Positions 1 through 52,267 of a DNA stretch of 64,000 nt are shown here, piece by piece. The DNA lies in NCBI RefSeq assembly GCF_057098645.1, contig NZ_CM169472.1. One strand, written 5' to 3'. The notes under the pieces were generated by a model. The model saw nothing but the letters and a program-made list of their open reading frames with translations, was not told the origin of the DNA and did no database searches. The stretch's first letter is position 1. The number at the start of each line of letters is the position of its first letter. A program made the translations under genes and the position numbers.

Positions 1-243
1 GAACATGAGGGGTCCATTTAACAGATTCAACCAGGGGCAAGTATGGTAAAGCATCACGCCCCGCACAAGGAAGCGGTAGTCACTGCCCGATACGGACTTG
101 ACATAACTCAACTCATTCTCCTCGCTATCCTTTTACTCAAACTTTCAAATTAAAATATTCATCTTTCATTTTGCGATCAAAATAACACCTTTAAATCTTT
201 CAATCTGATTAGATTAGGTTGCCGTTTGGTAATAAAACAATAA

Positions 244-1781
<1,538 letters not shown>

Positions 1782-1791
1782 AGGCTGAAAC

Positions 1792-2946
<1,155 letters not shown>

Positions 2947-3051
2947 TCAACAGCGGAGATCCGTTAAGGATCTCCGTGAGACTAATAGAATGCCTGATGC
3001 GCTACGCTCATCAGGCATACAGGACTTCCGCCACTACATTAAGGAAAAGTT

Positions 3052-3411
3052 ATGGTATCCGCACTCATCACTGTCGCCGTTATCGCCTGGTGTGCGCAAC
3101 TGGCCTTAGGCGGCTGGCAAATTTCTCGTTTTAACCGTGCCTTCGACACACTATGCCAGCAAGGGCGGGTTGGCGTGGGCCGTTCCAGCGGGCTCTTTAA
3201 ACCGCGGGTCGTGGTCGCCATCGCCCTGGACGATCAGCAGCGCATCGCCGACACCTTGTTTATGAAAGGACTGACCGTCTTCGCCCGACCGCAAAAAATT
3301 CCCGCAATTACCGGTATGCATGCGGGTGATTTACAGCCCGATGTGATCTTTCCCCATGATCCACTATCACAGAATGCTCTATCATTGGCGCTTAAACTGA
3401 AACGTGGATAA
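3052..3411 (+). CDS. gutM: glucitol operon activator GutM
   Basis: 119-aa ORF with N-terminal hydrophobic segment, positioned between srlD and srlR. Confidence 0.85.
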   Translation: MVSALITVAVIAWCAQLALGGWQISRFNRAFDTLCQQGRVGVGRSSGLFKPRVVVAIALDDQQRIADTLFMKGLTVFARPQKIPAITGMHAGDLQPDVIFPHDPLSQNALSLALKLKRG

Positions 3412-5209: not shown

Positions 5210-6720
5210 TCCTTCAATCCCAGACGTTTCGCCAGCCGATGCAGGTTGGCGACGTCGGTTTCCAGCATCCGCGCGCAGGCAGCCCAGTTGTGATGATTTT
5301 GTGCCAGTGCCTGACGAATAGTTTCACGCTGGAACGCTTCTGTCGCTTCACGCAGGTTTTGCTTAACAACGGGCACCGCCGCCGCTTCTGGCGGCGGTAA
5401 CGTCACCTCAGGAAAAGCAAAATGTTGCGCCTCAAGAATCACTTCATCGCCGTTGCGGGTGGCTCTCGCCAGCACTACCGCCCGATGAATAGCATGTTCC
5501 AGTTCGCGCACGTTCCCCGGAAAACGATAGTGTTGCAGTAAATTTCGCGCTCCGGCACTTAATACCACGCGGGAGAGCCCCAGCCGCAAACGACACTGCT
5601 CGCAGAAATACCCCGCCAGCAGAATGACATCATCGCCCCGCTCACGCAGCGGCGGCACCGAAAGTGGAAACACGCTCAGGCGGTGGAACAAGTCAGCGCG
5701 AAATCGCCCTGCCAGCACCTCTTCGCGTAAATCGCGGTTAGTCGCCGCCAGCACGCGCACATCGACCCGCAAACTACGGTCATCGCCAACGCGCTGAATA
5801 TCGCCATACTGCAACACCCTCAGCAGCTTGGCCTGCAATGCCAACGACAACTCGCCGATCTCATCGAGAAACAGCGTGCCGTTATCCGCCATTTCAAACT
5901 TCCCACTGCGGTTACTGATAGCGCCAGTAAACGCTCCTTTCACATGCCCGAACAACTCACTTTCCGCCACACTTTCCGGCAGTGCGGCACAGTTGAGATA
6001 GACCAGCGGATTCACCGCCCGTGGCGAGGCCTCATGAATCGCTTTCGCCACCAGCTCCTTACCGGTTCCCGTCTCACCGCTGATCAGGACGTTGAGATCG
6101 GACGCCGCCACAATCTCAATCTCTTTTTTCAGTTGCGTCATGCCTGGCGACAGACCGATCATCTGCGTCTGTTTCACCGCTTCAAACGGCGTGGCATCGC
6201 CTGGCAACATATTCTGGCTTTCCAGTTGCTCAATCAGCAACGCATTGCTTAACGCTCCCGCCGCCAGCGCGGCAATCAGGCGTAACTCTTCGTCACTGAA
6301 AACATCGAACTGATCGGGCTGCATCCCGTCGAGCGTCAATGCGCCGATCAGGTTTTGCCCGGCAAACAATGGCAGACCAACGCAGGCGTGGACCTTCAGA
6401 CTCTCCTGTCCGGGAATCAAACCATCATAGGGATCGGGCAATTCGCTGTCTGCGGGAAAGCGCACCACATCACCCGCGCGGGCAATCGCTTCCAGCCGTG
6501 GATGACCTTCCAGCGCAAAGCGTCTACCGAGTACATCCTTCGCCAGCCCGTCGATGGCAAGCGGAATAAACTGCCGCGAGTCGTAACGTAGCAACGCAGA
6601 CGCATCGCACTCCAGCACCTGACGCAGCGTGGTGATCAGGCGCTGAAAACGATCCTGATGACCAATCCCACGCTGCAATTCGATGGCGATATTCGCCAGC
6701 ACATCAACGGAAAAACTCAT
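5206..6720 (-). CDS. norR: sigma54-dependent nitric-oxide-responsive transcriptional activator NorR
   Basis: ORF track gives 529 aa from 6795; start placed at internal Met (MSFSVDV...) giving 504 aa. GAF domain, AAA+ Walker [15 protein letters not shown] sigma54-contact motif, C-terminal HTH. Confidence 0.92.
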
Positions 6721-16959: not shown

Positions 16960-17379
16960 TCAAAGAAACCATTCCGGCTTAACGCCAAATCGGGCTGAAA
17001 GTGCCTTAATGTGGGATATTGTCAGGGATCGTTGTCCAGACAAAATCTGACTGACCAGGGATTTAGAGCCGATTTCGTTCTTCAAATCCGCATAGGTCAG
17101 ATTATGTTGATCAATCAACGTGCGAAGTAACGCCACGCCAACCGGCATTGCCGCAACGGCTTTGTCGAACTCTGCAAACTTTTCGTTGTTGTTTTCATAC
17201 TCTGCAATGCGGCTCGCCAGAAAGTCGATAAGTGGATTGGTGTCATCTTCTTCAATCAAATATTCGACCAGTTCCAGTGCTTCACGATAATCATCTTCTG
17301 AGTCACTGCCTCCCAGAAAGGGGACTGCATTGACCAGTTCTCTTGTTGCTTTAACAGCGCGTGCAGCATTAGCAGTCAT
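16960..17379 (-). CDS. HigA-like antitoxin (HTH, XRE family)
   Basis: 139-aa ORF; C-terminal HTH (SKSLVSQILSGQRSLTISHIKALSARFGV); 4-nt overlap with upstream toxin ORF; toxin-first order typical of higBA. Confidence 0.75.
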   Translation of the reverse strand: MTANAARAVKATRELVNAVPFLGGSDSEDDYREALELVEYLIEEDDTNPLIDFLASRIAEYENNNEKFAEFDKAVAAMPVGVALLRTLIDQHNLTYADLKNEIGSKSLVSQILSGQRSLTISHIKALSARFGVKPEWFL

Positions 17380-17687
17380 TCTTTGTTCTCTCTGTAGTAA
17401 CGTGTCAGTTTGTCATACTCTGCGTGATTCGTTATGTGCTTCACAAAGAACCGCTTATTAACAAAGTTTATGTAGGCAATAACCCTAAGATTGTTCCCGC
17501 CGACATCCAGAACGTACCATTTGTTGCGATATTTAAAATTGTCGAGGTTGGGAAACGCCGTTCGCATTTCTTCTGGCGTAGAAAAATCCGTTTCCTTAAT
17601 AACCCGATACAATGCCTGAAGAGCCAGAGCGTCGTTAGGATATTTACGCGCAGACTCTTCAAATGGCGCTTTAGAAATGATGTGCAT
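17376..17687 (-). CDS. HigB-like toxin (RelE/ParE superfamily mRNA interferase)
   Basis: 103-aa basic ORF with DNFKY and VGGNNLRV motifs shared with HigB-type toxins; coupled to antitoxin. Confidence 0.75.
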   Translation of the reverse strand: MHIISKAPFEESARKYPNDALALQALYRVIKETDFSTPEEMRTAFPNLDNFKYRNKWYVLDVGGNNLRVIAYINFVNKRFFVKHITNHAEYDKLTRYYRENKE

Positions 17688-17848
17688 TTTTAAGTTTTAA
17701 CTTCCTTATAGTAAGTAAACAGCCACATCTGCGAGTTCTATCCTCATGTGTTCGGAAACTATAGCTCATCAAATCCAGGTTCACAATATGTAAACACTTG
17801 CGCGTGATATAATTACCCCCAAAATCCTCATAACCACTCTGCAAAAAG

Positions 17849-18622
17849 TCAGTTCTGATTCACCCCATCAAGCACATCCCCCTTTATCAAGCAACGTTGC
17901 GTCAGCGACAGATCTTCCGTTTGTGTGTCGCGCCCGGCGATGGGTTTGAGGACGAGTTTACGGTTGGGGGTATAAGTAAAACGCGTGAGCGCGGGATAGC
18001 TTAACTTGCCAAACCAGCCGTGAACACGCTGCCATTTGGCGTCTTTTACCTGATACAGACTGGTTATCCAGTAACCAGAATTAAACTGCATATCCAGCAA
18101 TTGCGTGTGACCATTGCCTTGTAAATCCAGCAAATCATCTACGCCAGTTTTGCTTGCAGTGTAGAATCCCCAGGGTTCAAAGACACAGGGACGGCCTTCG
18201 TGCGTGAACGTCATGAGGATTAAATGTGCATAGGGCGCCAGACCATTACCGGCACTTGGCAACCAGATAACCAGATCCTGAATGCCGTTACGATCCAGAT
18301 CGGCGCGATAGAGCTGCCCTTTGCCCGCCATATTTGCCAGCAACCCCACTGGCACCGTCCAGGATTTACCCGCGAGGTCTTTAGCGGTTAATTGCCAGTA
18401 ATCCTCTTCATTTGGCATCTTCTCAAGCGTCACGCCAGCAACGCCGATTTTTCTAAAATGCCAAGTTTGCTCGGTATAATAAGGCATGGTCAGGAGAGGT
18501 TTCAGCGCCCGCTTTTGCGCATATTCGCTGCCACTCATTGGCAGATATTCGGTAAAGCTGGTGGCCAGTGCAGACTGCACTAAGCTCAATAAAAAAGCGC
18601 ACATCCCTGTTCTGATGTTCAA
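17849..18622 (-). CDS. exported protein of unknown function, possible FG-GAP/VCBS-like calcium-binding loops
   Basis: 257-aa ORF with N-terminal signal peptide (MNIRTGMCAFLLSLVQSALA); motifs ADLDRNGIQDLV and LDLQGNGHTQLLD; starts 24 nt downstream of hycI stop on the same strand. Confidence 0.7.
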   Translation of the reverse strand: MNIRTGMCAFLLSLVQSALATSFTEYLPMSGSEYAQKRALKPLLTMPYYTEQTWHFRKIGVAGVTLEKMPNEEDYWQLTAKDLAGKSWTVPVGLLANMAGKGQLYRADLDRNGIQDLVIWLPSAGNGLAPYAHLILMTFTHEGRPCVFEPWGFYTASKTGVDDLLDLQGNGHTQLLDMQFNSGYWITSLYQVKDAKWQRVHGWFGKLSYPALTRFTYTPNRKLVLKPIAGRDTQTEDLSLTQRCLIKGDVLDGVNQN

Positions 18623-38908: not shown

Positions 38909-39349
38909 ATGATAGCGGCAGATAGTTTGCCCGGAGTTTACATGGCGTTACGAAATAAAGCGTTCCATCAGTTACGACAGCTTTTTCAGCAGCACACGGC
39001 TCGCTGGCAGCACGAGTTACCTGACCTGACCAAACCACAGTATGCGGTGATGCGCGCCATTGCTGATAAGCCTGGTATCGAACAGGTGGCACTGATAGAA
39101 GCAGCAGTCAGCACCAAAGCAACGTTGGCAGAAATGTTGGCAAGAATGGAGAATCGTGGCTTAGTCAGACGTGAACATGATGCCGCTGACAAGCGGCGTC
39201 GCTTTGTCTGGCTGACTGCCGAAGGAGAAAAGATACTTGCTGCGGCGATACCGATTGGTGACAGCGTGGATGAGGAATTTTTGGGGCGTTTGAGTGCAGA
39301 AGAGCAGGAGCTGTTTGTGCAGCTGGTGCGCAAGATGATGAACACATAG
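38909..39349 (+). CDS. MarR/SlyA-family transcriptional regulator
   Basis: 146-aa ORF with winged-helix region; alternative start at Met-12 (38942) cannot be excluded. Confidence 0.85.
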   Translation: MIAADSLPGVYMALRNKAFHQLRQLFQQHTARWQHELPDLTKPQYAVMRAIADKPGIEQVALIEAAVSTKATLAEMLARMENRGLVRREHDAADKRRRFVWLTAEGEKILAAAIPIGDSVDEEFLGRLSAEEQELFVQLVRKMMNT

Positions 39350-49490: not shown

Positions 49491-50528
49491 ATGTTTTCCG
49501 CATTGCGCCACCGTACCGCTGCCCTGGCGCTCGGCGTATGCTTTATTCTCCCCGTACACGCCTCATCACCTAAACCTGGCGATTTTGCTAATACCCAGGC
49601 ACGACATATTGCTACTTTCTTTCCGGGACGCATGACCGGAACTCCTGCAGAAATGTTATCTGCCGATTATATTCGCCAACAGTTTCAGCAAATGGGTTAT
49701 CGCAGTGATATTCGGACATTTAATAGTCGGTATATTTATACCGCCCGCGATAATCGCAAGAGCTGGCATAACGTGACGGGAAGTACGGTGATTGCCGCTC
49801 ATGAAGGCAAAGCGCCGCAGCAGATCATCATTATGGCGCATCTGGATACTTACGCCCCGCTGAGCGATGCTGACGCCGATGCCAATCTCGGCGGGCTGAC
49901 GTTACAAGGAATGGATGATAACGCCGCAGGTTTAGGTGTCATGCTGGAATTGGCAGAACGCCTGAAAAATACGCCTACCGAGTATGGTATTCGATTTGTG
50001 GCGACCAGCGGCGAAGAGGAAGGGAAATTAGGCGCTGAGAATTTACTCAAGCGGATGAGTGACACCGAAAAGAAAAATACGCTGCTGGTGATTAATCTCG
50101 ATAACTTAATTGTTGGCGATAAATTGTATTTCAACAGCGGTGTAAAAACCCCTGAAGCAGTAAGGAAATTAACGCGCGACAGGGCGCTGGCAATTGCGCG
50201 TAGTCATGGAATTGCCGCAACGACCAATCCGGGTTTGAATAAAAATTATCCGAAAGGCACTGGGTGTTGTAATGACGCAGAAATATTCGACAAAGCGGGC
50301 ATTGCTGTACTTTCGGTGGAAGCGACTAACTGGAATCTTGGGAATAAGGATGGTTATCAGCAACGCGCAAAAACAGCCGCATTCCCTGCGGGAAATAGCT
50401 GGCATGACGTAAGACTGGATAATCAACAGCATATTGATAAGGCACTTCCTGGAAGAATAGAACGTCGCTGCCGTGACGTTATGCGGATAATGCTACCACT
50501 GGTGAAGGAGCTGGCGAAGGCGTCTTGA
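49491..50528 (+). CDS. iap: alkaline phosphatase isozyme conversion aminopeptidase (M28 family)
   Basis: 345-aa ORF with signal peptide and M28 motifs (HLDT, SGEEEG); classic neighbour of the E. coli CRISPR array. Confidence 0.9.
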   Translation: MFSALRHRTAALALGVCFILPVHASSPKPGDFANTQARHIATFFPGRMTGTPAEMLSADYIRQQFQQMGYRSDIRTFNSRYIYTARDNRKSWHNVTGSTVIAAHEGKAPQQIIIMAHLDTYAPLSDADADANLGGLTLQGMDDNAAGLGVMLELAERLKNTPTEYGIRFVATSGEEEGKLGAENLLKRMSDTEKKNTLLVINLDNLIVGDKLYFNSGVKTPEAVRKLTRDRALAIARSHGIAATTNPGLNKNYPKGTGCCNDAEIFDKAGIAVLSVEATNWNLGNKDGYQQRAKTAAFPAGNSWHDVRLDNQQHIDKALPGRIERRCRDVMRIMLPLVKELAKAS

Positions 50529-50548
50529 TGGGTTTGAAAATGGGAGCT

Positions 50549-50943
50549 GGGTGTTCTACCGCAGGGGCGGGGAATTCTAAGTGATATCCATCATCGCATC
50601 CAGTGCGCCCGGTTTATCCCCGCTGGCGCGGGGAACACTACCCAAAGCCATACGTTTTTGAGGGTTAAAACGGTTTATCCCCGCTGGCGCGGGGAACTCG
50701 AGACCTGCCATGAGGTGGATTTATCAGTCGGCGGTTTATCCCCGCTGACGCGGGGAACTCGATTTTTTCCGCTTCTGACAAATGGTTTTTATCGGTTTAT
50801 CCCCGCTGGCGCGGGGAACTCCCCGAACCCGGCAACATGCTCGCCGACCTGCGCGGTTTATCCCCGCTGGCGCGGGGAACTCTTGATGAAGCGGCGCGTG
50901 TTATAGCTGATGGCCGGTTTATCCCCGCTGGCGCGGGGAACTC
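50549..50943 (-). CRISPR. type I-E CRISPR array: 6 full 29-bp repeats, 6 x 32-bp spacers, plus a degenerate leader-distal repeat
   Basis: Plus-strand repeat CGGTTTATCCCCGCTGGCGCGGGGAACTC at 50610, 50671, 50732, 50793, 50854, 50915 (61-bp period); minus strand reads GAGTTCCCCGCGCCAGCGGGGATAAACCG. Spacers 50578-50609, 50639-50670, 50700-50731, 50761-50792, 50822-50853, 50883-50914. Degenerate repeat 50549-50577 (19/29). The + ORF 50658-50906 is a repeat artefact. Confidence 0.95.
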
Positions 50944-51048
50944 TCTAAAAGTATACATTTGTTCTTAAAGCATTTTTTCCCATAAAAACAACCCACCAAC
51001 CTTGATGTAACATTTCCTTATTATTAAAGATCAGCTAATTCTTTGTTT
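50944..51048 (-). promoter_or_regulatory. CRISPR leader (AT-rich, array promoter)
   Basis: ~105-bp AT-rich segment between cas2 stop and the first repeat; array transcribed on the minus strand away from cas2. Confidence 0.7.
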
Positions 51049-52252
<1,204 letters not shown>

Positions 52253-52267
52253 TTTATTACACCTCAA

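Follow-up and report, generated by a model that had tools for sequence, protein, structure and literature searches.

Positions 50549-50943 of the window, the 64,000-nt stretch of contig NZ_CM169472.1 (assembly GCF_057098645.1) analysed here, carry a short series of regularly spaced repeats, one of which is strongly degenerate. Do these repeats form a genuine CRISPR array, to which known family would it belong, how did it reach its present spacer content, and would it still serve as a working defence?

Organization of the repeats and of the adjoining cas genes

The region is made of seven 29-nt repeats following an exact 61-nt period (starts at 50549 + 61 × i), with six unique 32-nt spacers between them, whose sequences reproduce exactly those listed in the initial annotation. 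A repeat finder combined with direct reading of 50300-51300 recovered six near-perfect 29-nt copies, the seventh and degenerate copy being added by a register-based count. On the plus strand the repeat consensus is CGGTTTATCCCCGCTGGCGCGGGGAACTC, which corresponds in the crRNA sense to GAGTTCCCCGCGCCAGCGGGGATAAACCG, the same as the K-12 consensus. Four of the seven copies are identical to it, two have one nucleotide changed and the terminal one agrees at 20 of 29 positions. The units of the array are as follows:

50549..50577, minus strand: terminal degenerate repeat (plus strand GGGTGTTCTACCGCAGGGGCGGGGAATTC), 20/29, in register
50578..50609, minus strand: spacer S1, the oldest (crRNA sense GGCGCACTGGATGCGATGATGGATATCACTTA), a species-wide anchor whose K-12 version differs by 1 nt
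50610..50638, minus strand: repeat R1 (crRNA sense GUGUUCCCC...), T>A at 50637
50639..50670, minus strand: spacer S2, seen only in O145-lineage arrays
50671..50699, minus strand: repeat R2, consensus
50700..50731, minus strand: spacer S3, seen only in O145-lineage arrays
50732..50760, minus strand: repeat R3, G>A at 50748 changing the crRNA loop from GCCA to GUCA; the s7-s8 deletion has its junction here
50761..50792, minus strand: spacer S4, seen only in lineage arrays
50793..50821, minus strand: repeat R4, consensus
50822..50853, minus strand: spacer S5 (crRNA sense CGCAGGTCGGCGAGCATGTTGCCGGGTTCGGG), 31/32 protospacer with AAG PAM
50854..50882, minus strand: repeat R5, consensus
50883..50914, minus strand: spacer S6, the newest, leader-proximal
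50915..50943, minus strand: repeat R6, leader-proximal, consensus

The repeat variants had already been pointed out and only small corrections are needed. Repeat 1 does end with ...AACAC, and the change from TGGC to TGAC in the loop of repeat 3 is real, its position being 50748 and not 50747. In the same way, the copy at the iap end is degenerate as described, with 20 matches to the consensus out of 29 instead of 19. This terminal repeat begins 20 nt (50529-50548) past the iap stop. The binomial chance of reaching at least 20/29 is 8e-7 for any single position, and the whole window, both strands included, would be expected to hold about 0.1 chance matches of this kind; outside the perfect copies, the only match of the window at this level is the terminal repeat, exactly in register. 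Tandem Repeats Finder reported nothing in the array region. This silence is expected because unique spacers interrupt the repeats, and it is no argument against a CRISPR array. Scanning 50300-57200 against Rfam 15 gave no CRISPR repeat family, a Chlorobi-1 match in this interval (17.7 bits for a cutoff of 50) being a sub-threshold chance match.

The location of the array between iap and cas2 was also upheld. With a 701-nt query covering the array, matches were obtained in 5418 of the 5426 complete E. coli genomes, where the annotated features are iap, CRISPR and cas2e, and a full type I-E cas set adjoins the array in the window. The polarity that had been proposed, from an AT-rich leader on the cas2 side and a degenerate repeat at the iap end, holds as well: the leader (50944-51048) contains 72% A+T, versus 48% for the window, and 104 of its 105 positions are identical to the K-12 CRISPR1 leader. 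When the translated open reading frames of the window were compared with NCBIfam, all eight type I-E families were found over their curated cutoffs, in the canonical order:

50944..51048, minus strand: leader, 105 bp, with a single difference from K-12 (G for A at 51004)
51049..51333, minus strand: cas2e (TIGR01873, 141.7 bits vs cutoff 33)
51335..52252, minus strand: cas1e (TIGR03638, 377 bits vs cutoff 216)
52268..52867, minus strand: cas6e (casE), pre-crRNA endonuclease (TIGR01907, 270 bits)
52854..53528, minus strand: cas5e (casD) (TIGR01868, 287 bits)
53531..54622, minus strand: cas7e (casC) (TIGR01869, 427 bits)
54635..55117, minus strand: cse2 (casB) (TIGR02548, 56.7 bits vs cutoff 28.5)
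55110..56618, minus strand: cse1 (casA / cas8e) (NF007247, 907 bits)
57033..59698, minus strand: cas3, with a frameshift from the loss of one base (GG>G at 57695/57696)

The homologous stretch of E. coli strain RM12761 carries cysD, iap, CRISPR, cas2e, cas1e, cas6e, cas5e, cas7e, casB, casA, cas3 and cysH. In K-12, the small RNA sokX is annotated between cas3 and cysH, and its window counterpart lies by homology at about 59830-59900. The array is the classical iap-cas2 CRISPR1 (also named CRISPR2.1 or CRISPR I) of E. coli type I-E, with the minus strand as the crRNA sense, since K-12 shares the repeat consensus, the leader, the oldest spacer, the terminal repeat and the ...AACAC distal variant. 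There is no evidence against this identity.

The repeats were then considered as RNA. The computed fold of the consensus repeat has a 7-bp stem and a 4-nt loop, with an energy of -15.1 kcal/mol and a z-score of -3.6. The R3 variant gives the same fold and the same energy, so that the loop change spares the stem, as had been suggested, and the hairpin is also kept in the R1 variant. In the terminal repeat the hairpin is lost, different pairs being formed at -5.3 versus -15.1 kcal/mol for the consensus. Distal repeats of K-12 have loop variants too (plus-strand TGAT and TAAC), which indicates that such variants are common in old repeats. Cas6e recognizes chiefly the repeat stem and its 3′ base, and not the loop. 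From K-12 biology, the array would be read on the minus strand, with transcription proceeding from the leader (51048-50944) toward iap. Cas6e would then cleave each repeat at the 3′ base of its hairpin, yielding 61-nt crRNAs in which the 8-nt 5′ handle AUAAACCG precedes the 32-nt spacer and a hairpin of 21 nt forms the 3′ end. Cascade loaded with these crRNAs would locate protospacers beside an AAG PAM, and the target would then be degraded by Cas3. According to the folding model, spacers S2 to S6, flanked by normally folding repeats, would be able to mature into normal 61-nt crRNAs. On the other hand, S1 is probably not matured, because the repeat that follows it no longer forms a hairpin. 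A sigma-70 scan of 50400-51400 gave no promoter-like site, the leader included; a leader promoter is predicted only by identity with the K-12 leader. Two terminator-like sites in the same interval are at chance level, one of them being formed by a repeat hairpin and, on the strand that is not transcribed, the T-run of S4.

History of the array in the O145:H28 lineage

The window is 99.94-99.96% identical to the O145:H28 strain RM12761 across the about 61 kb compared, an identity from which the source strain can be assigned to the E. coli O145:H28 lineage. In these 61 kb, the only indel other than that of cas3 is found at window position 38926, where TTT replaces the TT of RM12761. This extra T is intergenic, between the gene of a hydroxyarylic acid decarboxylase subunit B and a MarR-family gene. 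Homology with RM12761 also identifies, at about 16960-18600 and between ascB and hycI, genes for a HigB-family toxin, a helix-turn-helix antitoxin and a 251-aa hypothetical protein.

In order to retrace the history of the array, those of six lineage genomes were extracted and compared unit by unit. Their contents, and that of the window, are the following:

UTME-3: S1 S2 S3 s7 s8 S4 S5 S6
RM12761: S1 S2 S3 s7 s8 S4 S5 S6, with s7 duplicated
95-3192: without S2
RM12581: without S2 and S5
C325: without S2, S3 and s7
RM9872: only S1 S3 s7 remain
Window: S1 S2 S3 S4 S5 S6, without s7 and s8

The six lineage arrays differ solely by the loss or the duplication of units, that is, by deletions and one duplication. 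No leader-proximal spacer newer than S6 was seen in the sampled lineage strains, and S6 is leader-proximal in each sampled relative that retains it. The comparison shows that the window array corresponds to the lineage order S1 S2 S3 s7 s8 S4 S5 S6 from which the internal s7-s8 units were removed through recombination between repeats. At the junction, the window has the TGAC repeat and not the GAGG variant found after S3 in relatives, which is consistent with a single recombination between the TGAC and GAGG repeats.

The distribution of the other units bears on their age. The TGAC-variant repeat adjoins S4 in all related arrays holding S4, which argues for the inheritance of the R3 variant, and the ...AACAC end of R1 is also present on the equivalent repeats of RM12761 and UTME-3. 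The S1 plus terminal-repeat unit is found in 3763 of the 5426 complete E. coli genomes, those of O157:H7 and SE11 among them. Judging from these occurrences, the two repeat variants, like the S1/terminal-repeat unit, were inherited and did not arise anew. The RefSeq annotation puts the S1 plus terminal-repeat unit (window 50549-50609) outside the CRISPR feature; automated spacer counts for these arrays are therefore one too low. The spacers S2-S6 have a much narrower distribution, being found in the arrays of only 26 of the 5426 genomes, nearly all named O145. A survey of O145 isolates gave a mean of 4-6 spacers per array, with a range of 2-10 (PMC6881001), and a six-spacer array is thus typical.

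It may be asked whether the six-spacer state could instead be the ancestral one, the other O145 strains having acquired s7 and s8 through insertion at an internal position. Ectopic insertion away from the leader end has been described in other systems, as a matter of general knowledge, and this idea has no direct support in the present case. It appears barely conceivable. Indeed, acquisition in type I-E systems is established to be polarised to the leader end, s7 and/or s8 are present in 26 lineage genomes, and the strains with missing units lack differing internal subsets (S2; S5; S2+S3+s7; s8 to S6), a pattern consistent with deletions that occurred repeatedly and independently. Furthermore, not one of the 5426 complete E. 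coli genomes has the exact spacer combination of the window, every top match of the 701-nt query being either in two or three aligned pieces or of lower identity.

Spacer origins and the state of the system

Within the window, the statement that no spacer has a match outside the array was confirmed: without gaps, no spacer matches better than 21/32, a score at chance level, and self-targeting inside the window is rejected. Searches wider than the phage and plasmid comparison that had been recommended yielded a source for S5, and left S1-S4 and S6 with no match outside arrays. S5 is the sole spacer matching outside arrays in the 5426 complete E. coli genomes. The match, at 31 of 32 positions, lies in a prophage carried by E. 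coli JNE151685, within a gene whose annotation reads phage tail tip protein J-related and which has genes for portal, HK97-type protease, capsid and tail proteins around it. CTT follows the protospacer and represents, on the crRNA-sense strand, the canonical AAG PAM; the single mismatch falls at crRNA position 20, outside the seed. These features show that the source of S5 was a temperate tailed phage, from the tail-tip J-like gene of which the spacer was taken beside a canonical AAG PAM. The protein segment around the protospacer has only distant phage relatives, the best being that of Hafnia phage yong3 with 42.7% amino-acid identity. Since identity among sequenced phages is at most 42.7%, the source phage is poorly sampled and its family cannot be named.

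The other searches were as follows. For S1, S2, S3, S4 and S6, no match outside arrays was found in the collections searched, with the exception of S1 in a 293-kb plasmid record. No credible match to any of the six spacers was obtained among 50,697 phage records; partial matches of S5, which is G+C-rich, to Mycobacterium phage tape-measure genes (E>=3) are attributed to chance. Among 72,556 plasmid records, S2-S6 gave only noise. As for S1, matches in the plasmid collection include three records of 4.8-4.9 Mb, evidently chromosomes filed as plasmids; the E. coli plasmid record of 293 kb, NZ_LC542972.1, has a 28/29 match to S1. Comparison of each of the six spacers with IMG/VR, every sixth base being left free, gave nothing, and neither did that of S6 and S3 with bacterial and archaeal genomes, one per species. 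In JGI metagenomes S4 matched only once, in a further copy of the lineage array, not in a protospacer. An AAG-flanked protospacer in a mobile element was thus found for one of the six window spacers, S5.

A second origin can be traced in the sister arrays. Spacer s7, deleted from the window, matches a lambdoid prophage of STEC384 and STEC379 at 31 of 32 positions, beside an AAG PAM. This protospacer lies in a small nin-region gene; in STEC384 (NZ_CP091029.1) it occupies 6001-6032 of the extracted stretch. Both traceable spacers therefore point to temperate tailed phages, and both appear to have been acquired with the PAM preferred by the E. coli Cas1-Cas2 machinery. Given the canonical AAG PAM beside the nin-region target of s7 in a lambdoid prophage, the loss of s7-s8 and the frameshift in cas3 could both be imagined as escapes from autoimmunity. 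If the strain had acquired such a prophage, deletion of s7 and breakage of cas3 would each have been selected for, and the locus would illustrate how, in nature, the acquisition of a prophage drove the decay of CRISPR in a lineage of Shiga-toxin E. coli. This idea is nonetheless very unlikely.

The frameshift itself consists of the deletion of a single base in a GG pair. With respect to RM12761, GATGATGGCG is changed to GATGATGCG on the plus strand, and cas3 is split into two open reading frames, 57341-59698 and 57033-57644, which match positions 1-661 (N-terminal frame) and 679-877 of the 878 positions of the Cas3 profile. The frame shifts at about codon 668, so that the C-terminal domain and the last part of the helicase are lost. 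All other cas genes have their full length. The best cas3 matches are all 99.5% identical, as corresponds to one gap, and among the 5426 complete E. coli genomes, the 1139 that have this cas3 type all lack the deletion. It is therefore either a very recent inactivating mutation or an error of sequencing or assembly. Unless the latter holds, interference is probably dead in this strain. E. coli type I-E systems are moreover silenced by H-NS under laboratory conditions, an effect reportedly described in 2010 by Pul and by Westra, each with co-workers.

Should the deletion be a sequencing error, a fully working immune system could be envisaged, in which the array protects against phages carrying the protospacers of S2-S6. 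The intact cas genes other than cas3, the perfect leader and leader-proximal repeats, and the canonical PAM and intact seed of the S5 protospacer would all suit such a system, and the single-base nature of the cas3 deletion, together with the second single-base indel located elsewhere in a short homopolymer run, would suit an error. However, cas3 as read is split, no new leader-proximal spacer in the sampled relatives gives a sign of recent adaptation in the lineage, and H-NS silencing adds to these arguments. A working system is therefore regarded as unlikely.

The region between cas3 and casA has a further element, already known and separate from the CRISPR1 array:

56961..57050, plus strand: mini-array, predicted regulatory cr-like RNA, antisense to cas genes, made of psiR1, psiS and psiR2
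56961-56989, plus strand: psiR1
56990-57021, plus strand: psiS, 32-nt pseudo-spacer
about 57022-57050, plus strand: psiR2

In a scan of the window with the repeat consensus, psiR1 (plus strand ACCTTCCCTACTTAAGTAGGGATAAACCG) matched at 19/29. It keeps the 11-nt GGGATAAACCG end and adopts the dot-bracket structure of a true repeat, at -10.3 kcal/mol. The hairpin unit of psiR2, CATTCCCGAAGTTATTTGGGATTTGCAGG, has a 7-bp stem and a 4-nt loop and overlaps the cas3 stop codon. A putative target at 56836-56852, upstream of casA, is preceded by AAG (flanked site 56833-56852), and the first 17 positions of the pseudo-spacer match it at 1-5, 7-8, 10-11 and 13-17. The element thus has what is expected of a creR-like RNA: two degenerate repeats, a spacer-like segment and a partial seed match at a PAM-flanked predicted cas-promoter site. 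Both hairpin units are identical in K-12. Pseudo-spacer and target each differ between K-12 and the window at one or two positions, with no compensatory change between the two.

Considering this element, one might imagine that after the loss of Cas3 the system became a binding-only regulator, in which Cascade, the crRNAs and the mini-array control host or prophage genes in a CRISPRi-like manner. The Cascade genes are intact and cas3 is broken, the mini-array has a seed-matched target with an AAG flank close to the promoter region of casA, and such regulation has been shown experimentally for a Salmonella I-E system and for an I-F1 system. Yet the mini-array is also present in K-12 and in RM12761, both with an intact cas3, and is thus not tied to the frameshift; no spacer of the array has a match in the window; and the frameshift is unique to the window sequence, hence recent or an artefact. 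Regulation of this kind as the present role of the locus is extremely unlikely.

Taking together the absence of new spacers in the lineage, the frameshift in cas3 and the known silencing by H-NS, the array would be a frozen record and a lineage marker rather than a working defence. The explanation as a whole, namely an O145:H28-lineage type I-E CRISPR1 array that has lost s7 and s8, contains a phage-derived S5 and persists as a frozen record, is given a probability of about 0.85. Within it, the part concerning inactivity is weaker than the identity of the array.

Comparison with known systems

The array is real yet ordinary. It belongs to a known family, and all six of its spacers already occur in sequenced relatives. 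Its order S1-S2-S3-S4-S5-S6 is a new allele of the known O145:H28-lineage array and a possible epidemiological marker; beyond strain typing, it matters little. The comparison nevertheless provides a clean, small example of the established picture in which E. coli CRISPR1 changes by loss of internal units and not by acquisition. To this are added, modestly, the tracing of S5 to the tail-tip gene of a poorly sampled temperate phage and the strain-specific frameshift in cas3.

The mini-array is of the type of creR, and of that described by Shmakov et al. (2023), who predicted a cas3-cas8e mini-array of E. coli I-E systems as an autoregulatory cr-like RNA. It shares with them degenerate repeats and a 32-nt pseudo-spacer, an orientation antisense to cas3, and the ATAAACCG handle in the first repeat. 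CreR, its equivalent in the I-E system of Salmonella enterica, was experimentally shown to repress the casA promoter, whereas the function of the E. coli mini-array is predicted only.

With the O145:H28 arrays (RM12761, RM13516, UTME-3, 95-3192, RM12581 and others), the window shares its spacers, their order and its repeat variants. Unlike these lineage arrays, it lacks s7, s8 and the GAGG-variant repeat.

In K-12 MG1655, finally, cas3 is intact whereas it is frameshifted in the window, and the array contains 13 spacers, the S1-like unit being counted, versus six in the window, with S1 as the only one in common. Apart from these differences, CRISPR1 of K-12 resembles that of the window in its consensus, its 61-nt period, its position between iap and cas2 and its gene order, the cas operon having the same order and being about 97% identical. 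The resemblance extends to the distal end of the array. There, the oldest K-12 spacer is S1 with one nucleotide changed (CAAG... in K-12, TAAG... in the window), it is followed by a similar degenerate terminal repeat, and the distal repeat corresponding to R1 likewise ends with ...AACAC.
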